Source: Thermomicrobiales bacterium
GTDB taxonomy: Bacteria > Chloroflexota > Chloroflexia > Thermomicrobiales > UBA6265
Direction: 5' to 3'
Assembly: GCA_039809985.1 (NCBI GenBank)
Contig: JBDHWC010000002.1
Coordinates: 21,917-85,916, forward strand
Length of the DNA: 64,000 nt
This document shows positions 29,312 through 47,200 of this stretch, in pieces. How positions within the stretch are numbered: position 1 is the stretch's first letter; each line of letters opens with the position of its first letter. The position numbers were made by a program, and so were the translations under genes. The notes beneath the pieces are model-generated. The model was given only the letters and a program-made list of their open reading frames with translations, did not search any database and was not told where the DNA came from.

Positions 29312-30877
29312 CTACGGGTGGCTCGCCGGGTCGAGCGGGTCGGTCCCGTGGATCATCACCTCGTCGCCGTCGGACCAGCCGTCGCCGTCGGTGTCGGGGT
29401 TGTTCGGGTCGGTGCCGTGCGTGTTGATTTCCTGGCCGTCCAGCAGGCCGTCGCCGTCCGTGTCGACGCTGTAGAGGTCCTGCGTGCCGGTGGCGTCGCC
29501 GCCCGCGGCTGTGCCACCGGAGCCCGTCGATCCGGCTTCTCCGGTGCCGTTGCCGGGGGTCAGCGGATCCGTTCCCTGAGCGATCTCGTCGCCGTCGCCC
29601 ACGCCGTCGCCGTCGGTGTCGAACACGAGCGGCTGCGTCCCGATCTTCACTTCCTGCCCGTCGAGCAGACCGTCGCCGTCGGTGTCCGCCTTGCCCGGGT
29701 CCGTGTTCATCGCCTGTTCTTCGGCATCGGTCAACCCGTCGCCGTCGATGTCCGGACCCGACGTCTCCTCAGTCGCGACCGCCTCAGGGGCGACGGTCGG
29801 CTCCTCCGCGGGAGGCGCTTCGGTCGGCGCTTCCTCGGCCGGGGCCTGTGTCGCCTCCACCACGGCCTCTTCGGGTGGCGTCGGCTCCTCCTGCGCCTGC
29901 GTGTCAGGCGCCTGCTCCTGCGGCGCGACGGTGGCCTCCGCCGCGGCACCGGCCTGCCCCGACTGGCCGGCCTGGTCGTTATTCTTGTTCTTCTTGTCCT
30001 TGGCCTTGTCCTGAGCGGCGTTGGCGTCCGCGTTCGCGGCAGCCTGACCGGCTTGCCCGTTCTGCGCCGCCTTGTCCTTCGCCTGCTTGTCCGCCACGCC
30101 CGCACCGAGCTGCGGCACCTCCGGCCCGATCCTTCCGGCCAGCACGACCGCGCCCTCCGAGCCGCCCGTGAGCGTCAGGTCGCCGCTGAAGCTCCCCGAC
30201 TGCCCCGCGTCGAGGCTGGCCGACGCCCCGTTCGAGGTCGTCACCGTCGCCGCGCCCTCGGTCACCAGCACCACGGTCGGGCCGTCGCCGGCCGCCAGCG
30301 TCGCCGTCTCCCCGGCCGCCAGCGGGTCGCGCACCAGGTCGAGGTCGTGCCGCTTCGCGGGCGCGGCGAATGCCTCGCTCGTGAACGTCACTTGGCCACC
30401 GTCCGGCTTGCCGGCGTCGGTGCCGACCAACTCCAGCGCGTAGTACGCGGCCGGGTCGGACCCGAGCGAGGCTCGAATCTGCTTGCCACCTCCGCTGACG
30501 AACGCCGCCTCGCCGGCCGGCAGGCGATCCTGACTGCCGGTGTCGACGTCCTGCACGAGCAGCGTGCCTTGGTCGGCCACGATGAAGCCGAGCGAGGACC
30601 CGTCTTGGCTCGCCGAGTCCGCAGGATCGCCCGAGCCCTGAACCACGCGCCAGCTCGCGTTCCCCGTCGGCAGGTTGGCGACGCCTTGGGCCACCACGGC
30701 GGCGGTGCCGCTGGCCGGGGAATCCCCGCTCGGTGCCTGCTGGGCAAGCACGCCGAGCAGCGGCGCACCCGTCATCGCCGCGATCGCCAGCAAGCTCGCG
30801 AGGCCGCGGCGCGACCGCGACCTCGTCGCGGCGCGCGGCCGACCGTTCGTCACATCGTCCGAAGTTGACTGCGTCAT
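29312..30877 (-). CDS. secreted protein: cupin-like N-terminal module, Ala/Glu/Pro linker, bacterial TSP3-type Ca-binding repeats
   Basis: Signal peptide ending VLAQ; five D(T/I)DGDG..D.E...GT(D/Q)P-type repeats. Start uncertain (ORF extends to 30988). Confidence 0.8.
   Translation of the reverse strand: MTQSTSDDVTNGRPRAATRSRSRRGLASLLAIAAMTGAPLLGVLAQQAPSGDSPASGTAAVVAQGVANLPTGNASWRVVQGSGDPADSASQDGSSLGFIVADQGTLLVQDVDTGSQDRLPAGEAAFVSGGGKQIRASLGSDPAAYYALELVGTDAGKPDGGQVTFTSEAFAAPAKRHDLDLVRDPLAAGETATLAAGDGPTVVLVTEGAATVTTSNGASASLDAGQSGSFSGDLTLTGGSEGAVVLAGRIGPEVPQLGAGVADKQAKDKAAQNGQAGQAAANADANAAQDKAKDKKNKNNDQAGQSGQAGAAAEATVAPQEQAPDTQAQEEPTPPEEAVVEATQAPAEEAPTEAPPAEEPTVAPEAVATEETSGPDIDGDGLTDAEEQAMNTDPGKADTDGDGLLDGQEVKIGTQPLVFDTDGDGVGDGDEIAQGTDPLTPGNGTGEAGSTGSGGTAAGGDATGTQDLYSVDTDGDGLLDGQEINTHGTDPNNPDTDGDGWSDGDEVMIHGTDPLDPASHP
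29325..29755 (-). repeat. five coding DxDGDG (TSP3-like) repeats
   Basis: Repeated gccgtcgccgtcggtgtc-like units encoding DIDGDGLTD, DTDGDGLLD, DTDGDGVGD, DTDGDGLLD, DTDGDGWSD. Confidence 0.85.
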
Positions 30878-30984
30878 GCGAATCTGTCCCTTCCCTACCG
30901 TGCGTGCTCCCACGGTGCCGAGCGAATCATCACCCACCGACGGGCGTGCCGTCCTCCCCAAACCCTCCGCCTGATGACTGGCTG

Positions 30985-32916
30985 TCACGGCGTCGGAGAC
31001 GCCGCCGTGCCCGGACGCAACGAGTAGACCGCGATCCCGCCCGCGCGCTGGGTGTCCGTGAGCGAGATCGCGAACGCCGGCGGCGACACCGAGACCAAGC
31101 TCGCGCCGGGCGCGATCACGCCGCTCGCGTCAGGCGGCATGGAGACGACGTCGACCGTCACCGGACCGATCGGCACGTCACCCCAAGTCAGCGCGCCCGC
31201 CCCTACCGTGGCCTCGTTCGCACCGCGGCGTTCGCCGTCGGCGGTGACCAGCTCGACGCCGAGGCCTTTGGAAGGGCTGCAAGCATCTGGGCTGAACGTC
31301 TGGGCGGTCATGCCCGCAGGACAGTCGAACAAGGCGACGGTCATCGTCCCGTTGGCGCTCGGCGTGCCTGGGACCGGCGTGGGGCTGGCCGGCGCGCCCG
31401 CCGGTTGCAGGAAGAACGCTCGCAACGCCAGCTCTGGCTGCGACCCGTCGATGGTCAGGGTGTAGTCGCCGGCGGCCGGGTCGAACGTCGCCTCGGGCAC
31501 GACGTAGGTGTCGTAGCCGGCCGGGAGCGAGACGAACCCGAAGCGGTAGGTGCCGGTCGCCAAGCCGGACCACGTCGACCGCCCGCCCGAGCCGGTGTCC
31601 GTCGGCGCAACGGCTTGTCCGCCCGGAGCGGTCAACTGCGGCACGAACCCCGTGTCGACCGCGACGCAGTCGGCCTCGCGCTGGCGCAAGGTGTCCAGCG
31701 TGACCGTCGCGGGGCACGCGAACCCCTCCAGTGTCATCTGCGTCGCGCTCCCCGGCCGCAGGAAGTAGATCGTGGCCGTGAAGTCCGGTTGCGCCGCCGA
31801 CACGGGGAGGCCCGTCGCCGCGCTCTGCGCCGTCGTGCTGCCCGCGCCGATGACCGTGCCCGCGCCGTCGACCACGACGTACCGGTCAAACCCGTTGGGG
31901 ATCGTCACCGGAGACAACGGGAAGGTTCCGAACCTGAGCCCGGACCATCGATCCGTGCCCGTGGCCGAGTCCGACTGGCTCGGCGGCAGCGACGAGCCGT
32001 CAGCCAGCGCCAAGGTCGGCGGCGGGGTGAGCGTGACCGGGCTGCACGCCGTCGTGTCGTCGACTGCCACCGTGCTGCCGGCAAACGCATCGGGATCAAT
32101 CGAGGCGGGGCAGCCGCGGGCGACGAGGGCGATCGAGCCGGTCGGCGGCACCGGCGGCGCGGGCATCTCCGGCCCGATCACTGCCGCGACCACCACGGCG
32201 GGCTGGGTCCCGATGGAAGCGATGGTCAGGTTGCCGGCGAGCGACGCGGCATGTCCGGCAGTCAGGCGCACGGGAAGCTGGCCGCTCGACCTCACCTCAA
32301 GCTCGCCGTCGGTGGCGAGGACCAAGGCCGGCAGGTTCGGCGACGCGATGGAGGTGCTCTCGCCCTGCCTCAGAACGTCCCGGACGAGCGCGATGTCGAA
32401 CGCCCGGCCGACGGGGGCGGCGAACAGACTGCCGGCCAGCACCATCCGGTCGCCGCCGGCGTCGTTCGCCTGCTCTGCCGCGACCAGCGCCACGCGGTAG
32501 TACGGCGCGTCGGCGCTGCCCAGGCTGACGCGCTGCTGCTGCGCGCCGGACGGCACGAAGATCGCCTCGCCCGGTGCCAGTCGCCATTGCTGGCCGCTGC
32601 CGGTGTCGTTCACCGCCAGCGCAGCGCGGTCGGCGACGGCGAATCCGAGCGCGCGCTGCTCGGTCTCGGCCGCGGCGGGAAGTTCCGCCGTGTCGGCGAC
32701 AACTCGCCACGCGATTGATTCGGCCGGTATCGGCGCAACGCCGTGCGCGATGACCTGCGCGTGCCCGGTCGCGGGCGACGGCGCGTTTGCCGTCTGCAAC
32801 TGGACTGCCGCGGCAACCGCCGTCGGCAAGACCACCGCCGTCGCGACTGCGAGCAGGAGACGCCTGCCAGCGGATCGCCTCCAGCCGCGTCCCCATCGGT
32901 TCCCGCGGTCGCGCAC
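30985..32916 (-). CDS. secreted protein: the same cupin-like N-terminal module plus three Cys-pair beta-sandwich repeats
   Basis: Signal peptide; AQVIAHGVAPIP..WRVV parallels AVVAQGVANLP..WRVV of the neighbour; three CP...C units, each followed by W(S/G)(G/D)(L/V)xxG. Confidence 0.8.
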   Translation of the reverse strand: MRDRGNRWGRGWRRSAGRRLLLAVATAVVLPTAVAAAVQLQTANAPSPATGHAQVIAHGVAPIPAESIAWRVVADTAELPAAAETEQRALGFAVADRAALAVNDTGSGQQWRLAPGEAIFVPSGAQQQRVSLGSADAPYYRVALVAAEQANDAGGDRMVLAGSLFAAPVGRAFDIALVRDVLRQGESTSIASPNLPALVLATDGELEVRSSGQLPVRLTAGHAASLAGNLTIASIGTQPAVVVAAVIGPEMPAPPVPPTGSIALVARGCPASIDPDAFAGSTVAVDDTTACSPVTLTPPPTLALADGSSLPPSQSDSATGTDRWSGLRFGTFPLSPVTIPNGFDRYVVVDGAGTVIGAGSTTAQSAATGLPVSAAQPDFTATIYFLRPGSATQMTLEGFACPATVTLDTLRQREADCVAVDTGFVPQLTAPGGQAVAPTDTGSGGRSTWSGLATGTYRFGFVSLPAGYDTYVVPEATFDPAAGDYTLTIDGSQPELALRAFFLQPAGAPASPTPVPGTPSANGTMTVALFDCPAGMTAQTFSPDACSPSKGLGVELVTADGERRGANEATVGAGALTWGDVPIGPVTVDVVSMPPDASGVIAPGASLVSVSPPAFAISLTDTQRAGGIAVYSLRPGTAASPTP

Positions 32917-33989: not shown

Positions 33990-34011
33990 GGCCGTCCCCG
34001 AAGGGACGGCC
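33990..34011 (-). terminator. stem-loop with cUUCGg tetraloop downstream of the Gly/Asn-rich gene pair
   Basis: Minus strand GGCCGTCCC-TTCG-GGGACGGCC, about 28 nt after the stop. Confidence 0.6.
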
Positions 34012-34039
34012 CCGATTGAACCTTGCGTTGTCGGCAGCG

Positions 34040-34321
34040 CTAGCTGACGAAGGCGAGGTTGTAGTTGCCGCCCGAGGCGTCGGCGATGCCGGTGCCGCCG
34101 TTCGCCGAGAGGCCGAGGTCGGTGTTGTTCGAGATGTAGCCGCCGTTGATGACGGGATCCTGGTAGGAGTTGCCAACGCTGATCGCGTTGCCAACGTTCC
34201 CGCCGCTGTTGATGTCGCCGCCGGAGATGGCACCACCGTTGGCACCGGCCGTGGCCACCCCGCCGTTGCCGGCCGAGGCGACGAACGGGCCGCAGCACTG
34301 CGCGAAAATCTCGCTGCTCAT
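34040..34321 (-). CDS. small Gly/Asn/Ala/Ser-rich protein (93 aa), paralogue B
   Basis: MSSEIFAQCCGPFVASAGNGG...SANGGTGIADASGGNYNLAFVS; AAGGGGAG RBS; aligns end to end with the neighbour. Confidence 0.85.
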   Translation of the reverse strand: MSSEIFAQCCGPFVASAGNGGVATAGANGGAISGGDINSGGNVGNAISVGNSYQDPVINGGYISNNTDLGLSANGGTGIADASGGNYNLAFVS

Positions 34322-34347
34322 GAGACTCCCCTTCAACCCCGTTTCAG

Positions 34348-34382
34348 CGCATCGCCGCCCCGAGTGCCGGGGCGGCGATGCG
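34348..34382. promoter_or_regulatory. perfect 15-bp intergenic stem-loop between the two paralogues
   Basis: CGCATCGCCGCCCCG-AGTGC-CGGGGCGGCGATGCG. Confidence 0.65.
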
Positions 34383-34402
34383 GGAGATCAGTGCCTTCAG
34401 GC

Positions 34403-34675
34403 TTAGCTGACGAAGGCGAGGTTGTAGTTGCCGCCCGAGGCGTCGGCGATGCCGGTGCCGCCGTTGGCGGAAACGCCAAGGCCGGTGTTGTTCGAGATCG
34501 TGCCGCCGTTGACGGAGACGTCGCCGCCCCAAGTGTCACCAACGCCGATCGCGTTGCCGGCGTTCGAGCCGCTGTTGATGTCCCCGAGGGACGCCGCCCC
34601 GCCGCTCGCGCCCGCCGACGCGACGCCGCCGTTGCCAGCCGAGGCCGTGTACTGCGCGAAAAGCTCGTCGCTCAT
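34403..34675 (-). CDS. small Gly/Asn/Ala/Ser-rich protein (90 aa), paralogue A
   Basis: MSDELFAQYTASAGNGG...SANGGTGIADASGGNYNLAFVS; GGAGGGAG RBS. Confidence 0.85.
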   Translation of the reverse strand: MSDELFAQYTASAGNGGVASAGASGGAASLGDINSGSNAGNAIGVGDTWGGDVSVNGGTISNNTGLGVSANGGTGIADASGGNYNLAFVS

Positions 34676-34768
34676 GATTGTCTCCCTCCCTGGAGAGCCC
34701 GTTACCCACTACCCGTTTCGCCCGAGTCCGACCCGTTTCGGAGCCTGCTCGGTTCGAAACCCCGCCTT

Positions 34769-34821
34769 ACGCTACCATCCAGTCCCCCCACTGTCAATGC
34801 CGGGGTGTCCGGACAACCCGG
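34769..34821 (-). promoter_or_regulatory. sigma70-type promoter with adjacent palindromic operator for the small-protein pair
   Basis: Minus strand TTGACA (34797-34792)-17 nt-TAGCGT with TG extension; palindrome CCGGGGTGTCCGGACAACCCGG at 34800-34821. Confidence 0.6.
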
Positions 34822-34981: not shown

Positions 34982-36037
34982 TTGGCTGACCTCAACCTCC
35001 CGCTCCTGAAGCAACTGTGCGAGACACCGGCAGTGCCGAGCCGCGAGGACGCCATGCGCGAACTCGTCGCCCGCGAGATTCGGCCGCTGGTCGACGACCT
35101 GCGCGTCGACGTCCTCGGCAACCTGGTCGCCACGCGGCACGGGGCGCGGCCACGGGTCATGCTGGCGGCGCACATGGACGAGATCGGGTTCCTCGTCCGA
35201 CACATCGACGACAAGGGGTTCGTCCGGTTGCAGCCGGTCGGCGGCTTCGACCCGCGGACGCTGGTGGCCCAGCGCGTGGTCGTCCACGGGTTCGCCGGCC
35301 AGCGGCTCGTCGGCGCGCTTCAGCCGGGAACCAAGCCGATCCACGTCCTTGATCCCTCGGAGGTGAAGCCGCTCAAACTCGAGGAGCTTTACGTCGATCT
35401 TGGGATGGCAGCCGATGCGGTGCGGTCCATGGTCGAGGTCGGTGACATGGTGACCCTCGACCGCGGGCTCGAGCCGGTCGGCGACTGCGTGGTCAGCCGG
35501 GCGCTCGACGACCGGGTCGGGCTCTTCGTCATGATCGAGGCGATGCGCGCCGCGACCGGCACCGCATGCGAGATCGTGGCCGTCGCCACCACCCAGGAGG
35601 AGGTCGGCCTGCGCGGGGCTCGCACCTCCGCCCACGCGGTGCAGCCCGACGTTTCCGTGGCGCTCGACGTCACGCTCGCGGTCGACACGCCCGGCGGCAG
35701 CCCGGAAGCGGCGGTGACCGAGCTCGGCAAGGGCGTCGCCCTGAAGGTGATGGATTCCTCCCACCTCAGCAACCCGAAGCTCGTGCGCCATTTCCGCGAC
35801 CTCGCGGACGAGGCCGACATCCCCTACCAGCTCGAGCTGCTGCCGCGCGGCGGCACCGACGCCGGCGCGATGCAACTCTCCCGCGACGGCTCGGCGGCGA
35901 TCACGATCTCGATCCCGACCCGTTACGTCCACACGGTGAACGAGATGGCAAGCCAAGCCGACATCGCCGGCGCGATCGACCTGCTCGCCCGATTCCTCGG
36001 GACGGTCGGCGACCGCGACTACGGCTACGCGGTGTGA
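34982..36037 (+). CDS. M42-family metallo-aminopeptidase
   Basis: AAHMDEIG, ALDDRVG, TQEEVGLRGA, ALDVT, GGTDAG, RYVH; TTG start. Confidence 0.93.
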   Translation: MADLNLPLLKQLCETPAVPSREDAMRELVAREIRPLVDDLRVDVLGNLVATRHGARPRVMLAAHMDEIGFLVRHIDDKGFVRLQPVGGFDPRTLVAQRVVVHGFAGQRLVGALQPGTKPIHVLDPSEVKPLKLEELYVDLGMAADAVRSMVEVGDMVTLDRGLEPVGDCVVSRALDDRVGLFVMIEAMRAATGTACEIVAVATTQEEVGLRGARTSAHAVQPDVSVALDVTLAVDTPGGSPEAAVTELGKGVALKVMDSSHLSNPKLVRHFRDLADEADIPYQLELLPRGGTDAGAMQLSRDGSAAITISIPTRYVHTVNEMASQADIAGAIDLLARFLGTVGDRDYGYAV

Positions 36038-36054
36038 GCGGGGCACGATCGGCG

Positions 36055-36084
36055 TTGACGCCCGTTTCCGGCCTGTCGTACACT
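36055..36084 (+). promoter_or_regulatory. promoter of tRNA-Ala
   Basis: TTGACG-18 nt-TACACT just upstream of the tRNA. Confidence 0.6.
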
Positions 36085-36095
36085 CCGACCGCCTT

Positions 36096-36168
<73 letters not shown>

Positions 36169-36184
36169 CCCTCGGGGGACCACG

Positions 36185-36212
36185 AACGGCCCGGGCTTCT
36201 GCCCGGGCCGTT
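36185..36212. terminator. hairpin between convergent tRNA-Ala and ftsH
   Basis: AACGGCCCGGGC-TTCT-GCCCGGGCCGTT. Confidence 0.65.
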
Positions 36213-36237
36213 GTCATGGTGCGCGACGGCAGATGCG

Positions 36238-38199
36238 TCAGTCGGCCGGCTGCGGGGCGAGACGACCCGGCGCGGCCGGGTAGTCACGGTCCGGTCGACC
36301 GGGGTGCCCGTCGGCGGGCCGCGCCGCTGGGCGCCCGGTCGGCGGCCCGACCAAGTCCGGTCGCGGCCGCGGGCCGTCGAACAGCGCCTCGAGGTCGTCC
36401 CCCTCGATCGTCTCCTCACGGATCAGGAGCTGGGCGATCGCCTCGAGCTTGTCGGCGTGGTCCGCGAGGATCGCCTTCGCCCGTTGGTGCGCGGTCTCGA
36501 CAAGGTCGCGGATCTCCTGGTCGATCAGGTAGGCAACCTCGTCGCTGTAGTTCCGCTGCTCGCTGATCTCGCGGCCGAGAAAGACGAGCTCGTCCTTCTT
36601 GCCGAAGGCGAGCGGCCCGAGGGTCCGGCTCATCCCGAACTCGGTCACCATCCGGCGCGCGATCGCCGTCGCCCGCTCGATGTCGTTGGCAGCCCCGGTC
36701 GACTGCTCCTCGAACACCATCAGCTCGGCGACGTGGCCGGCCATGAAGACCGCCAGTTCGTCCTCGAACTGGGCCTTCGTCTTGAACAGCCGGTCCTCGT
36801 CCGGGACGACCCGGGTGTAGCCGCCCATCATGCCGCGGGCAACGATGCTCACCTTCCGCACCGGGTCGGCGTGCGGCAGCATCCGGGCCACCAGCGCGTG
36901 CCCGGCCTCGTGGTAGGCGGTCATCGACCGCTCGCGCTCGGAGATGACGCGGCTCTTGCGCTGCGGCCCCGCCAGCACCCGGTCGATCGCCTCGGTCATC
37001 TCGTCGCGACCGACGGTCTTCTTGTTGCGCCGTGCGGCGAGGATCGCCGCCTCGTTGACCAGGTTCTCGAGGTCGGCCCCGGAGAAGCCGGGCGTCTGCC
37101 GGGCGAGGTTCTCGATCGAGACGTCCTCCTCCAGCGGCTTGCCGCGGGCGTGGACCGACAGGATCGCGGTTCGGCCCTGGATGTCGGGCCGGTCGAGAAT
37201 CACCTGCCGATCGAAGCGCCCCGGCCGCAGCAGCGCGGGGTCGAGCACGTCGGGCCGGTTCGTCGCCGCGACGACGATTACGTTGGTCGAGCTGTCGAAG
37301 CCGTCCATCTCGACCAGGATTTGGTTCAAGGTCTGCTCGCGCTCGTCGTGGCTGCCGCCGAGCCCCGCGCCGCGCTGCCGCCCGACCGCGTCGATCTCGT
37401 CGACGAAGACGATGCACGGCGCGTTGCGCTTCGCCTGCTCGAACAGGTCACGCACCCGGCTCGCGCCGACGCCGACGAACATCTCGACGAACTCCGAGCC
37501 GGAGATCGAGAAGAACGGCACCCCGGCCTCGCCGGCGACGGCCCGCGAGAGGAGCGTCTTGCCGGTCCCAGGCGGCCCGACCAGCAGCACGCCGCGCGGG
37601 ATGCGCGCCCCGAGCGAGGCGAACTTGTCCGGGTACTTCAGGAACTCGACGACCTCGACTAGTTCCTCCTTCGCCTCGTCGACGCCCGCGACGTCGGCGA
37701 AGGTGACGGTCGGCTTGTTGCCGGTGAAGAGCCGGGCCCGGCTCTTCCCGAACGACATCGCCTGGTTGTTGCTCCCCTGGGCCTGCCGCATCATGAAGGC
37801 GAAGACGCCGATCAGCAGCGCGGTCGGCAGGATCAGGGTCAGCACGCTCAGCCAGCCGCCCCAGCGGCTCGCCGGCTCGAACTCGATCAGGCCGGGCGGC
37901 AGGGAAGCGGGATCGACCCCGTAGGTCTTGAGGACGGTCAGCAGGTCCGCGCCGGGCGGCATGGTCATCACCGCGTCGCGGCGCCCGGCCTCTGGCACGT
38001 ACTGGACGACGACGTTGCCGCTGTCCTCGGACTGGGTCAGCTTGGCGACCTTGTCGTCCCGCAGCTCGGCGACCACGTTGCCGATGCTGCGTTGGGTGGG
38101 GCCGCCCTCGCCGCCGACCAGCGTGAACCAGAGCGCGACGACGGCGACGACCAGAACGATCCAGACAAACCCGTTGCGCAGCCGTTTCGTGTCGCGCAT
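36238..38199 (-). CDS. ftsH: ATP-dependent zinc metalloprotease FtsH
   Basis: Two TM helices; [32 protein letters not shown]. Confidence 0.98.
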
Positions 38200-38283
38200 G
38201 CATGCTCCTGGCGGGCGGGATGCCGCGCCGTGCGGGCTTCCGGCGCGGTGGGTCGGCAGGCCCTGAGTATAGCGAAATCGCGG

Positions 38284-38862
38284 TCAGGCATCGCTCTCGC
38301 TCAGGAGCGACGGGTCGAGCACCGCGATGTACGGCAGGTTCCGGTAGCGCCCCGCAAAGTCGAGTCCGTAGCCGACGACGAACTCGTCAGGAATCCGGAA
38401 ACCGATCTTGTCGACCTGCACGTCGACGGCGTCCGGCTTGTCCTTGGTCAGGAGGGCAACGACCGTGATGTCCTTCGGGTTGCGGCGCTGGAGGACGTCG
38501 AGCAGGTATTTCAGGGTCAGGCCGCTGTCCACGATGTCCTCGACCACCAGCACTCGCCGGCCCTCGATGTCGCGGTCGAGGTCCTTCAGGATCCGCACCA
38601 CCCCTGAGCTCCGGGTCGCGTCGCCGTAGGACGAGATCGCCATGAAGTCGATCTCGACCGGCACCGTCATCTGCTTCATCAGGTCGCTCATGAAGGCGAC
38701 CGCGCCGTTGAGCACCCCGACCATCAGTGGCACGTCGCTCTGGTAGAGGTCGTCAAGCTCCGCGGCCAGCTCGGCCGTGCGGCCGGCGATCGTCGGCTGG
38801 TCGACCAGCACGCGCCGCACCCCGCGCGCTCGCAGTTCCGGCTTCGCCCCGGCTTCGGTCAC
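38284..38862 (-). CDS. hpt: hypoxanthine phosphoribosyltransferase
   Basis: GVLNGA, ISSYG, VVEDIVDSGLTL, FVVGYGLD..RNLPYI. Confidence 0.96.
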   Translation of the reverse strand: MTEAGAKPELRARGVRRVLVDQPTIAGRTAELAAELDDLYQSDVPLMVGVLNGAVAFMSDLMKQMTVPVEIDFMAISSYGDATRSSGVVRILKDLDRDIEGRRVLVVEDIVDSGLTLKYLLDVLQRRNPKDITVVALLTKDKPDAVDVQVDKIGFRIPDEFVVGYGLDFAGRYRNLPYIAVLDPSLLSESDA

Positions 38863-39938
38863 CGTGTCGCTCCTCCCCGCTCCCCGTCGCAGCTTGAAAG
38901 GGCCACGAGCGTCGTCCGCGTCCGCCGCACGGCCCGCCCGTTCCCGAGTTCGACCACGCTGCCGTTCTCGCCCGTCTCGGCCAGTCGCAGCAACGCTTCC
39001 GTCCGCTCCCGCGAGATCGGCGGCGAACCGCAGGCTTCGTCAACCCACCGCCGCACGAGGCGGCTCCGCAGTCCCCTCGGCGCATCGCGCAGTTCGGCGA
39101 GCGTCAGCGTCCCGTCGTTTCCGCGAGCACGTGCCAGCCAGTCTTCGCACAGTGAGCCGATGACCGCCTCGTCGTCCGCAGCGAGCGCAGCGTACCGTGT
39201 CAGCGCCGTGGTCGATCCCGGCATCAGCTGCTCGAACAGCGGCAGGAGCTGATGCCGGATCGCGTTGCGCCGGAAAACCGGATCGTCATTGGAAGAGTCG
39301 GCGTTCGGCTGAAACCCTGCTTGACCGACGTAGGCCACGAGGTCCGTCCGCCGTTCCTCGAGGAGCGGACGCCAGACGCGCCACTCGCAGGCGGGCTCGT
39401 CCGATGCCCACCATGGAACGGTCAGCGGCGTCAGCTCGCGCATTCCGCTCGCGCCGAGGGTGCCCGCCCCTCGCCCGAGATGCAGGAGGACGGTCTCGGC
39501 TTGGTCCTCGGCGTGGTGGGCGAGCGCGATGATTTCTGTGCCGTGCCCGCGTGCCGTCAAGGCCAGCCCGCGAAACCGTTCGCGCCGCAACGCCTCCTCT
39601 GGGCCGACACCCGGATGGAGGTCGCGCGCAGGCCGCGCGAGGACGTGCGGCGCAAACGCCAGCCCGAGTTGGTTCGCCAGCACCTGCGCGGCTGTCCGGT
39701 CCGCGCCAGACTCCGGGCGCGCCACATGGTCGACATGGCAGAGGACCGGCACCACGCCCGCCCGCGACGCAACTCTGGCAAGGCCGACGGCGAGGGCAAG
39801 CGAATCGGGTCCGCCAGAAAAGCCGACAACGACCCTCTGGCCGGCTGCGAGGCGCAACCGGCTCAGCCTGTCGAGCAGGCGCTGCTCGATGCCGAGGAGA
39901 GCATTGGCCGGGAGAGCGCCGACGCGAGTCAACGCCAC
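38859..39938 (-). CDS. tilS: tRNA(Ile)-lysidine synthetase
   Basis: PP-loop SGGPDS, VDH, AHHAEDQAETVL..RGAG, RPLL, DSSN..RNAIRH; tilS-hpt-ftsH synteny. Start moved to a GTG 3' of the tRNA. Confidence 0.93.
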   Translation of the reverse strand: MALTRVGALPANALLGIEQRLLDRLSRLRLAAGQRVVVGFSGGPDSLALAVGLARVASRAGVVPVLCHVDHVARPESGADRTAAQVLANQLGLAFAPHVLARPARDLHPGVGPEEALRRERFRGLALTARGHGTEIIALAHHAEDQAETVLLHLGRGAGTLGASGMRELTPLTVPWWASDEPACEWRVWRPLLEERRTDLVAYVGQAGFQPNADSSNDDPVFRRNAIRHQLLPLFEQLMPGSTTALTRYAALAADDEAVIGSLCEDWLARARGNDGTLTLAELRDAPRGLRSRLVRRWVDEACGSPPISRERTEALLRLAETGENGSVVELGNGRAVRRTRTTLVALSSCDGERGGATR

Positions 39939-39964
39939 AGTCTTCGGGAACGGCGCGGGGCGCG

Positions 39965-40039
39965 TGGTGCCGACGGGTGGACTCGAACCACCGGCCAAGG
40001 GCTTATGAGTCCCTTGCTCTGCCTCTGAGCTACGTCGGC
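39965..40039 (-). tRNA. tRNA with CAT anticodon (probably tRNA-Ile2; elongator Met not excluded)
   Basis: GCCGACG/CGTCGGC acceptor, discriminator A plus encoded CCA, anticodon loop CTCATAA; paired G1-C72, so not an initiator. Confidence 0.92.
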
Positions 40040-40064
40040 GAGGTGCGTCCTCACGGCACGGCGC

Positions 40065-40093
40065 AGTCTAACGGAGCCGTCCGAGGCGGTCAA
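40065..40093 (-). promoter_or_regulatory. promoter for tRNA(CAT)-tilS-hpt
   Basis: Minus strand TTGACC-17 nt-TAGACT, about 25 nt upstream of the tRNA. Confidence 0.6.
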
Positions 40094-40319
40094 ACTCGGC
40101 GTGGGTTCGCCGTGCGGTCAACGATGCCCTGTTGGGTGCCCAACAATGCCCCGACCCGGCGCATGCCGCCAGAATCGGACACCGCGCTCCCGAGCAGATG
40201 GCTGGCAGGACACGATGAATGGCGATTTCCGCCACTCTGTGCTACCGTGAGGGTCGTCTGAGGGGTCCACGGTCGCTCAACGGAGGTGGCAAGGACTGGC
40301 GTCCGCCAATGCTCACCGG

Positions 40320-40393
40320 TACCCCCAGCGGGATTCGAACCCGCGATCTTCACCTTGAAAGGGTGACGTCCTAGGCCGCTAGACTATGGGGGC
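40320..40393 (-). tRNA. tRNA-Glu(TTC)
   Basis: GCCCCCA/TGGGGGT acceptor, D-arm GTCTAGCGGCCTAGGAC, anticodon arm TCACC-CTTTCAA-GGTGA, T-loop TTCGAAT. Confidence 0.95.
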
Positions 40394-44209: not shown

Positions 44210-47200
44210 ATGTCCCTCTCCCATCTCCTGCCGAACGTCGTCGAGTCGCCGTCCGTCGCCGCAATCCTGGCCGCGGTCGCCGAAGGCGACATGCTCGGCC
44301 TGTCGGATGTGCCGTCCGCCGGGCGCCCGGTGGTTGCCGCAGCCCTCGCCGCCCGCGCCCCCGGCCCGCTGCTGATCGTCACGCCGCGCGCGGACCGGGC
44401 CGATCGGATGGCGGCCGCCCTCGGGACCTACTTGCCGCAAGGGCACGACCTGGCGCTCTGGCCCGCACCCGACGCGCTGCCGTTCGAGCAGTTGCCGTTC
44501 GACCTCGGCGTCGCCACCGAGCGGGTCCGGGTCCTCGACCGACTTGCCAACGCCGAAGCCGACGAGGGGCCGCCGCCGGTGGTGGTCACCTCGGTCAGCG
44601 GACTGTTGCACCTCGTCATGCCACCGGCGGCCCTCCGGGTCCACGCACGCAAGATCACCGTCGGCGGCCGGGTTGAGGTCGACTCGCTGCTGCACTGGGC
44701 CGTCGCGCACGGCTACCAGACCGTTCCGCTGGTCCAAGCCCCCGGCGAGCTGGCGCACCGCGGCGGCATCGTCGACCTCTTCCCGCCCGGCAACGACCTC
44801 CCGGTCCGGATCGACCTCTTCGGCGACGAGGTGGAGACGATCCGAACCTTCGACCCGTCCTCCCAGCGGTCCACTGCCCGCCTCCGCGAGATCCGGCTGC
44901 TGCCGCCGTCGGAACTGCCGATCTGGAACCTCGCGTCAGCGGCGGAGCGGCTCCGGCTCCTGCCGATCGACACACTCCGACCCGAGGTGGCGGCCGAGTG
45001 GCAGCGGATGCTGGACCAGATGGACGCCGGCGTCGTTCCCGCGTCGATTGACCTCTTCGCGCCCTACCTGCTCGATCGCGACGCGACTCTGGTCGACTAT
45101 CTCGGCGACCGGGCGACCGTGATCGTCGACGACCCGGCCGCCGTCGCCCTCGCCGCAAGTCAGCTCGCCGCTCAGGCCGCGGAACTCGAGCAGGCGTTCG
45201 TCGCCAACGCCGAGCTGCCGCCTGGCCTCGTCTCGCCGATCGCCACGTGGGAGCGCGTGTCGGAGCAGCTCGGCCTGTTCCCCGGCATCGCTTTTGGCGG
45301 CTCCCACGCGGATCGCCCTGCCGGCGTCGAGGACGCGCCCAACTTCGCCGGCCGTCTCGGCGACGTGGTCGAGCACGTCCGCGGCCGCCTCGCCGACGGA
45401 TGGCGGCTGGCGATCGCCACCGACCAAGTCGAACGGCTGACCGAGATCTTCGAGGACCACGACATCTTCCCGCGCCGGGACAAGCGGCGCGGCATCGACG
45501 CCGTCGCCGCCCTGCCGCTTCCCGCCGGCACCCTCGAGATTCGAGCCTCGGACCTCGACGGCGGCTGGGCGATGCCCGACGTGCGCACCTTGGTGCTGAG
45601 CGACCTGGAAATCTTCGGCTTCCGCAAGCAGGTTCGCCGGGCGCACCGGCGGCCCGGCTTCCAAGTGGACAGCGAGGCCTTCGCCCGCGGCTTGGTGCCG
45701 GGCGAGTTCGTCGTCCACGTCGACCACGGCGTTGCCCGGTTCGCCGGCCTCGCCCGGCTGGAGACGAACGGGGTCGAGCGGGAGTACATGCTCCTGACCT
45801 ACGCCAAGGACGAGAAGCTCTACGTGCCGGTCGACCAGAGCGACCGCGTCTCCCGCTACTCCGGCGGCGGTTTGGAGCCGACTCTCACCCGGCTCGGCTC
45901 CGGCGAGTGGGCGCAGGTCAAGCGCAAGGTGCGCAAGGCCGTCCGCGAGATGGCCTTCGAGCTGATCCAGCTCTACGCCGCCCGCGAGACGGCGACCGGC
46001 CACGCCTTCCCGGCCGACACCACGTGGGACCATGAACTGGCCGAGTCGTTCCCGTTCACCGAGACGCCCGACCAGCAACGGGCCATCGACGCCACCCGGG
46101 CCGACATGGAGTCGGCCGAGCCGATGGACCGCCTGATCTGCGGCGACGTCGGCTTCGGCAAGACCGAGGTCGCCCTTCGGGCGGCGTTCAAGGCCGTCAA
46201 CAACGGGCGGCAGGTGGCCGTGCTGGTGCCGACCACGGTGCTCGCCCTCCAGCACTTCACGACCTTCAGCCAGCGACTCGCCCCCTTCCCGGTCCGGGTC
46301 GAGATGCTCTCCCGCCTCCGCTCGAAAGCCGAGCAGCGCGAGACGCTCGAGGCGCTCGCCGACGGCGCGGTCGACATCGTGATCGGCACCCACCGGCTGG
46401 TGCAGCGCGACGTTGCCTTCCGCAACCTGGGACTCGTGGTGATCGACGAGGAGCAGCGCTTCGGCGTCCGCCAGAAGGAGTTCCTGAAGCAGCTGCGGAC
46501 CGAGGTCGACGTGATGACCATGAGCGCGACGCCGATCCCGCGCACCCTCCACATGGCCCTCGCCGGCATCCGCGACATCAGCATCATCGACACCGCGCCG
46601 CAACTGCGGCTGCCGGTTCGCACCTTCGTCACCGCACGCTCCGACCAGCTCGTGCGCGAGGCGATCCTGCGCGAGCTGGACCGTGGCGGGCAGGTCTACT
46701 TCGTCCACAACCGGGTCCACGACATCGACCATCAGCTGGCCAAGCTGAAGGAACTGGTCCCCGAGGCCCGACTCGGCGTCGGCCACGGCCAGATGGACGA
46801 GGACGTGCTGGAGGAGGTCGTCCTCGGCTTCGTCCGCCACGACTTCGACGTGCTGCTGTCGACGACGATCATCGAGTCCGGCATCGACATCCCGAACGTC
46901 AACACGATCGTCATCGACAACGCCGACACGCTCGGCCTCACCCAGCTCTACCAGCTGCGGGGCCGCGTCGGCCGCAGCGCGAACCGGGCCTACGCCTACC
47001 TCCTCTTCAAGCCGGACAAGTCCCTCTCGGACGAGGCGCACGAACGCCTCGACGCGATCCAAGAAGCAACCGAGCTCGGGGCGGGCCTGAAGGTCGCCAT
47101 GCGCGACATGGAAATCCGCGGCGCGGGCAATGTCCTCGGCGCGGAGCAGAGCGGGCACATCGCCGCCATCGGGTACGAACTGTACATTCGCCTTCTCAGC

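Follow-up and report, generated by a model that had tools for sequence, protein, structure and literature searches.

A tandem pair of Lys-, Arg- and His-free proteins in Thermomicrobiales belongs to a multicopy domain family with LPxTG-tailed members and may contribute to a chaplin-like surface polymer

Introduction

Genes A and B, which lie in tandem within a 64,000-nucleotide stretch of a Thermomicrobiales bacterium genome (the window), are paralogues in a multicopy family built on a ~83-residue Gly/Ala/Ser/Asn domain that is found here in six Thermomicrobiales genera. The pair is genuine and probably transcribed, and the structural gene family to which it belongs is clade-restricted and has no name. 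In the reading that we favor, and to which we give somewhat better than even chances, A and B serve as free subunits of a cross-beta polymer at the cell surface that resembles the chaplin layer and is stacked on wall-anchored copies of the same domain. If this reading is right, the gene family behind a surface polymer of activated-sludge and soil Thermomicrobiales gets a name. In excerpts of a survey of wastewater Chloroflexota, the adhesion mechanism is described as unclear, only known adhesin genes are screened, and Thermomicrobiales are not mentioned (PMC10746286).

Results and discussion

Genes A and B and their surroundings

The features of the A/B region, in window coordinates, are as follows.

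34403-34675, reverse strand: gene A, a 90-aa single-domain member of the family, with the alpha half followed by the beta half
34040-34321, reverse strand: gene B, a 93-aa paralogue of A with 72-74% identity to it
34769..34797, reverse strand: sigma70-type promoter, with the -35 element TTGACA at 34792-34797 and the extended -10 element TGG-TAGCGT at 34769-34777
34800..34821, no strand assigned: imperfect palindrome of 22 bp, with a 10-bp perfect core at 34806-34815
34682..34690, reverse strand: RBS of gene A, assigned from sequence
34326..34334, reverse strand: RBS of gene B, assigned likewise
34348..34382, reverse strand: intergenic stem-loop with a perfect 15-bp stem (fold z -4.5)
33990..34011, reverse strand: terminal GC-rich hairpin with a C(UUCG)G loop (fold z -4.6)

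A preliminary description of this stretch, made from the letters alone, had reported two ORFs without Lys, Arg or His that share an identical tail and similar heads, and both ORFs are where it placed them. Neither A nor B contains a single K, R or H, their last 22 amino acids are identical (with 3 nt differences across the last 69 nt), and their N-terminal heads read MSDELFAQ in A and MSSEIFAQCC in B. The product of gene A begins with a short, acidic head that closes with FA|Q, and its C-terminus reads NLAFVS; it contains no Cys, and B contains only its N-terminal CC. The turn units ending (N/S)GG that were described earlier are present with one correction, which is that A reads DINSGS and not DINSGG. 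Likewise, the reported absence of a Sec/Tat signal holds, as no upstream in-frame start would add a signal peptide to either protein.

A heuristic call of the genome's ORFs (80 aa or longer) gave 2599, of which just five are free of K, R and H; all five are family members. This result, the GC3 of the pair (0.91-0.93) and the 1014 near-length homologues described below indicate that the pair is real beyond chance. By a table of synthesis costs, A and B are the 9th and 34th cheapest of the same 2599 ORFs. CsgA, flagellin and FimA are reported to be among the cheapest E. coli proteins, and cheap synthesis is a feature of subunits that build extracellular fibres, CsgA being an example (PMC2932507).

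A multicopy family confined to six genera of the order

The preliminary description had suggested a search for relatives, their copy number and versions with signal peptides. That search identified 1014 near-length and 171 longer homologues (120 of each listed), which form 334 clusters at 50% identity (150 listed), and versions with signal peptides do exist. The same description had recognized no signature of a characterised family, and this is borne out: A and B match no Pfam family at E <= 1, and the domain has no match in Pfam, NCBIfam or PDB sequences. When 46 divergent members were compared with Pfam (E <= 0.5), eight scattered single matches with E values of 0.03-0.26 were obtained. The ESM Atlas returned, by features, only clusters without names, and for a repeat protein no usable named match. 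Among the papers listed for the open-access literature, none was on the family, and none linked Thermomicrobiales with amyloid.

Of the order's 192 genomes, 28 contain the family; they comprise every searched member of six genera and none of the other 50 genera, with 10-31 matches per positive genome (these tallies include the unpublished genomes G422 and G436, and the maximum of 31 comes from G436, being 28 without it). The identical 28 genomes were recovered with a divergent profile, for which 46 of 74 candidate stretches were used, and none of 300 other genomes sampled across the phylum contained the family. The named homologues among the matches listed carry Thermomicrobiales or Chloroflexota labels, plus one Planctomycetes label (P0144) that is possibly a binning error. 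The source genome (G000), which is 86% complete, contains 17-21 domain matches, LPxTG-tailed forms among them; the earlier view of A and B as a self-contained cassette therefore does not hold.

Short, secreted and LPxTG-tailed forms share one domain

The domain is composed of an alpha half (SAGNGG...GNAIGVGDT) and a beta half (VxVxGG...ADASGGxxNLA), and N15, N34, N38, N62, N85 and the GG turns are near-invariant across the family. G000 encodes 12 short forms, all signal-less (11 canonical and one divergent), three LPxTG-tailed forms (two with one layer and one with two), one protein that combines a signal peptide with the alpha half alone, and two further secreted forms that are divergent. Three further genomes (G385, G431 and G435) contain short, LPxTG-tailed and secreted multi-repeat forms, and the long forms of G397 are cut or have no scored LPxTG. 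By regular expression, an LPxTG-type end signal is present in 63 of the 120 longer homologues listed. In the 83 stored LPxTG forms, the alpha half comes last in 83 and the beta half first in 77, which is the reverse of the order in A and B. Natural concatemers span 1 to 10 layers and, should the polymer reading be right, would allow a direct test of how the fibre is built, for which a synthetic protein of 90 residues would suffice.

These architectures bear on the alternative, raised in the preliminary description, that A and B are RiPP-like precursors whose enzymes are encoded elsewhere. The short forms are indeed signal-less, multicopy and Ser/Thr/Asn-rich, with a short shared head, as such precursors might be. 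However, conservation spans the whole 80-residue core, tandem arrays and LPxTG-tailed proteins contain the same core, the 30 recurrent neighbor families scanned at 92 loci include neither a RiPP enzyme nor an exporter, and no C39 peptidase (PF03412) gene was found in the 86% complete source genome. These data contradict the precursor reading, and we assign it a negligible probability.

The combination of forms is instead reminiscent of the chaplins. Streptomyces coelicolor ChpA-H include short single-domain forms and long multi-domain forms with sortase signals; one proposal is that the long chaplins tether the short ones, which form a cross-beta layer, and chaplin Cys pairs are intramolecular (PMC5618241). 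As in that system, short and LPxTG-tailed, putatively anchored forms occur in one Thermomicrobiales genome (12 and three, respectively, in G000, with LPxTG-tailed forms also in G385, G431 and G435). The two systems also differ in several respects. The chaplin family PF03777/DUF320 is absent from A and B (E <= 1) and from the 46 divergent members (E <= 0.5), the domain described here is ~83 aa whereas that of chaplins is ~55 aa, and the anchored forms have a swapped order of halves. Short chaplins are secreted, whereas about three-quarters of the short forms here, including all 12 in G000, have no signal peptide; and each chaplin domain contains two Cys (except in ChpE), whereas A has none and B has only the N-terminal CC. 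Cys pairs do exist in anchored members of the A/B family and in one of its subfamilies. If our reading is right, the A/B family would be non-homologous to the chaplins in sequence yet chaplin-like in logic, a reinvention of that logic.

Structure predictions suggest one domain per cross-beta layer

The AlphaFold2 model of monomeric A (pLDDT 71, pTM 0.28) contains a single strand pair, joining residues 11-13 to residues 87-89, and is globally unreliable at that pTM. The AlphaFold model of P0248, a natural protein with four repeats, has a mean pLDDT of 80, 208 residues at 90 or above and a pTM of 0.67; it is all-beta, and the strand pattern is the same in every repeat. Because the strands are unpaired in the single domain yet paired in the array, these models suggest that one domain forms one cross-beta layer, as read from DSSP strings rather than from coordinates. 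AlphaFold tends to render tandem repeats as solenoids. The preliminary description had expected a beta-solenoid or cross-beta fold from modelling; the natural four-repeat member is predicted to form all-beta repeats in one register, and monomeric A is nearly unpaired. A prediction for a four-copy complex of A (score 0.03, mark 0.42) counts neither way, since its controls were not folded, and mutual-information contacts on A2 (Neff 63) were noise. The undescribed beta polymer proposed at the outset is a candidate supported by family architecture and by these models.

No structure matched by Foldseek at E <= 0.001; the top row was FapC (E 0.0099, TM 0.07-0.14), which is not significant. By VIA-align, the repeat model aligned with a beetle antifreeze solenoid (Z 9.4, rmsd 6.3, 90 residues aligned), a springtail PPII bundle (Z 9.1, rmsd 2.7, 111 aligned), the CsgA fibril (Z 6.3-6.6; at Z 6.3, rmsd 8.0 and 93 aligned) and FapC, whose layer is a Greek-key beta-solenoid (Z 2.4, rmsd 11.6, 102 aligned). 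The best of these matches to the predicted model are to stacked-strand proteins and are of middling quality, with Z scores of 6-9 and, in several cases, an rmsd above 6. The model of monomeric A matched no solved chain at Z >= 2. Ena and chaplin structures were absent from all fold lists, which excludes nothing.

Given that the two highest Z scores belong to antifreeze proteins, A and B could be soluble or low-order oligomeric binders of ice, mineral or polysaccharide, folded as a non-amyloid beta-solenoid. Consistent with such a role, the strands have alternating Ala faces, and they are tightly packed and composed of Gly/Ala/Ser, as in the Rhagium beetle solenoid and the springtail PPII bundle. 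In addition, one paralogue precedes a cluster of glycosyltransferase, sulfotransferase and epimerase genes at up to 17 loci. However, only 90-111 of the ~330 residues of the repeat model align with the antifreeze proteins, so that the match may reflect no more than a common arrangement; the consensus has no regular TxT array; a single domain is nearly without internal strand pairing in the model and so would need partners; and the sequencing runs that contain the A/B stretch are mostly of activated-sludge and wastewater DNA. We regard a surface-binding role as quite unlikely.

The predicted layer invites comparison with functional amyloids. By repeat sizes, it would be about twice the length of that of FapC and more than three times that of CsgA. 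FapC and CsgA have one repeat per layer, conserved Asn residues and flexible linkers (PMC12822426). The A/B family is similar in its predicted one-repeat layers and its cheap, Gly/Asn-rich composition, and is different in that it matches no Curlin or Fap family and in that A and B are single-repeat proteins. Neither csgEFG/fapDF-type secretion genes nor a chaperone/channel operon were present among the 30 recurrent neighbor families.

If A and B are subunits of a surface polymer, each domain would be a single serpentine beta layer, paired exclusively with the equivalent strands of neighboring domains, with predicted Asn ladders and Gly-Gly turns. Sortase would fix the forms with a signal peptide and LPxTG to the wall, where they would seed the polymer or tether it; secreted multi-repeat forms could serve as pre-stacked seeds, and short forms such as A and B would make up the bulk of the polymer. 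With 5-6 acidic residues and no basic ones, A and B would probably depend on Ca2+/Mg2+ or low pH to stack, and in-register columns of the conserved Asp would be repulsive in the absence of counter-ions. The weakest step of this mechanism is export: since A and B have no signal peptide, they would have to reach the surface by a signal-independent route or by cell lysis.

Cysteines and the relationship between A and B

In anchored forms, Cys residues are present on both sides of the short-form linker point in 34 of 46 one-layer and 24 of 26 two-layer proteins (the one-layer anchors were sorted by regular expression, and some of the 12 misses are mis-sorted two-layer forms). We infer that these residues could form a disulfide that closes a circularly permuted ring, with which their positions fit as expected. 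A second pair of Cys residues covaries, with both present in six sequences, one in two and neither in 196 (n = 204).

The N-terminal CC of B had been taken to mark a minor subunit that crosslinks the fibre, with the intergenic hairpin setting the ratio of A to B. The vicinal CC is common to four copies in G000 (B and three on contig C132), CC follows the domain in several anchored homologues, the 15-bp intergenic stem is real, and the tandem pair at the A/B position is conserved at 16 other loci. As a general feature, however, a Cys-crosslinking minor subunit is not supported by the distribution of the motif, which is present in two of 128 complete short homologues (one of which is B itself) and absent from all 16 orthologues of B; moreover, acceptor Cys residues are absent from A and from the core of B. 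The stem is not conserved either: in 16 orthologous spacers, folding was no better than that of shuffled sequences (z -0.8 to +1.9), which argues against a role in setting stoichiometry. We therefore judge a major/minor pair of this type to be very unlikely. The intergenic stem-loop is possibly a 3' stabiliser or partial terminator for the gene A mRNA.

Bacillus cereus Ena1A and Ena1B are also small tandem paralogues with an N-terminal Cys-Cys motif, encoded at a bicistronic locus (10.1101/2020.08.21.260141). Similarity to the A/B pair is limited to the tandem arrangement of small paralogues and, for B, the N-terminal CC. Ena subunits are jelly-rolls in which the CC is bonded to two core Cys, whereas B has no core Cys; furthermore, no DUF3992 match was obtained here, and the CC is not conserved in orthologues of B.

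Signal peptides are absent from many short forms

At the 16 loci orthologous to A/B, gene 2 encodes a signal peptide in eight and starts directly at M|Q in seven, and the 16th, from a close relative, has a short acidic head like that of B. In the seven orthologues with the direct start, the signal peptide is cleanly absent, exactly at M|Q, and the spacers preceding gene 2 are of the same length (61-67 nt) with and without it. Trees of neighboring genes require one or two changes of signal-peptide state at this locus and are therefore compatible with a single loss. How proteins might be exported independently of a signal is a concrete question raised by this clean loss at orthologous positions.

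Of 117 short forms encoded at the loci, 26 were scored as having a signal peptide, 27 a short head and 64 neither (four are visibly mis-scored and were kept in the tally). On well-supported branches of a 79-column tree, the signal-peptide label changes at least five times, a count that is weak because paralogues may convert each other. One subfamily, marked by QT(R/K)IQD(K/R)FF, includes all three states. A genome-wide search with the short-head pattern returned 12 ORFs, all of them family members, a result that is circular for the positives and informative on the absence of others.

A competing explanation is that the signal-less forms build a beta stack inside the cell, as an inclusion or as the coat of a resting stage that is exposed after lysis, and that the forms with signal peptides act separately at the surface. 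Several observations fit: none of the 12 short copies in G000 and none of the canonical short copies in G385 and G397 has a signal peptide, its clean absence extends to seven of 15 orthologues of B, no candidate exporter was found (WXG100 and C39-peptidase genes were not detected in the 86% complete source genome), and the secreted multi-repeat forms of G385, G431 and G435 could form a surface polymer alone. Opposing this explanation, a single orthologous position is occupied in some genomes by a form with a signal peptide and in others by one without, the core being the same, Cys pairs persist in the signal-less P0259 and in two signal-less G385 copies, and the very low cost of synthesis fits proteins that are not recycled. 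We consider an intracellular stack unlikely.

For a surface polymer, one conceivable route is that short forms hitch-hike on Tat substrates. The source genome contains two TatC genes, yet this route is a guess because no Tat-type domain carrier was seen in that genome. A more ambitious version of the surface-polymer reading is that the family is an independently evolved functional amyloid of the Chloroflexota, in which a ~83-residue subunit is a whole layer, permuted sortase-anchored copies act as seeds, and bulk subunits, which leave the cell by a signal-independent exit, have repeatedly shed the signal peptide at its cleavage site or exchanged it for a 6-8-residue acidic FA|Q head. We put this version forward only tentatively and consider it doubtful as a whole.

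The promoter is conserved and transcription is likely

A near-consensus promoter had been noted upstream of gene A, and it is real: TTGACA-17-TAGCGT with an extended -10 TG, at 34797-34769. All 16 positional orthologues have the pattern CATTGACA-14-TG-N-TAG-NN-T upstream; of its three occurrences in the genome, two precede family genes. A consensus promoter scanner reported no promoter at its own thresholds. The palindrome upstream of the promoter exists as well; its interpretation as an operator is unsupported, as the genome has 191 comparable centers and the core is present at none of the 16 orthologous loci, and it is probably not a conserved operator. Both the intergenic stem and the terminal UUCG hairpin that were described earlier are real. 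The latter is likely the end of the transcript: a stem of at least 10 pairs follows gene 2 at all 16 orthologous loci (scored with no shuffled control). A consensus scanner found no terminator-type U-tract. A search of Rfam yielded five sub-threshold matches and no riboswitch.

Transcription of A and B is likely, because contigs from RNA libraries match both genes. In one study, contigs of 219 and 310 nt match A with no differences (two runs) and one of 183 nt matches B with a single difference (one run), for an identity of 99-100%; RNA contigs from two further studies are ~95% alike and come from relatives. Two runs of one study (X15 and X16) yielded contigs that stop at 34746 and 34749, close to the predicted start; from these runs, no contig matched the 20 kb that begin at the rpsJ gene, and almost none matched the window flanks. 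We do not claim high expression, because these runs were chosen for containing the cassette and contigs cannot rank genes.

Neighboring genes and further family members

The genes that recur as neighbors at 92 loci serve housekeeping, competence, glycosylation and transport. Two candidates for partners were rejected. Sortase, a gene for which is present in the source genome, is not a specific partner, since it is found in 185 of the 192 genomes of the order. The cupin-like secreted proteins encoded downstream are not dedicated partners, as homologues are present in 101 of 108 genomes of the taxonomic family. Three proteins, encoded at 29312-30988 and 30985-32916 (reverse strand) in the window and at G000:C6:5413-6123, share an unclassified cupin-like region; the two in the window are secreted, and one has TSP3 repeats. 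Their homologues are often multicopy and recur beside this A/B pair and beside an anchored member.

The paralogue at the glycosyltransferase/sulfotransferase/epimerase cluster lies between that cluster and a phosphomannomutase gene (L004, at G000:C13:39669-39935, and L017 are examples), a position hinting at a link to surface polysaccharide.

Several members depart from the canonical plan. Short proteins consisting of the alpha half with a signal peptide and a helix-like tail occur once each in G000, G385 and G431 (L011, at ~44955-45206 of G000:C7, L115 and L144), and may be a cap or adaptor. A divergent subfamily, which retains mainly the last 20 residues of the domain, is encoded upstream of a canonical copy at L003:2314-2559 (G000:C294), L042, L057 and other loci; the copy in G000 is preceded by the same conserved promoter as A. 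P0193, P0199-P0201, L106, L116 and L166 are Cys-rich proteins that incorporate the domain, or the alpha half of it, as a fusion; their N-termini look twin-arginine-like by eye, and they are possibly cargo displayed on the polymer. P0191 (563 aa) has the domain fused to an N-terminal region that, by eye, resembles a papain/C39-type peptidase. On contig C132, three CC-bearing B-type copies lie in tandem (L005:3239-4619) with long hairpins between them, and two have their own promoter-like TTCACA...TGGTAGGAT stretch.

The promoter is preceded closely by the end of a tRNA gene at most of the orthologous loci. In the window, the interval between the promoter and tRNA-Glu (34982-40393) is occupied by genes for an M42 peptidase and tRNA-Ala and by three that we take to be ftsH-, hpt- and tilS-like.
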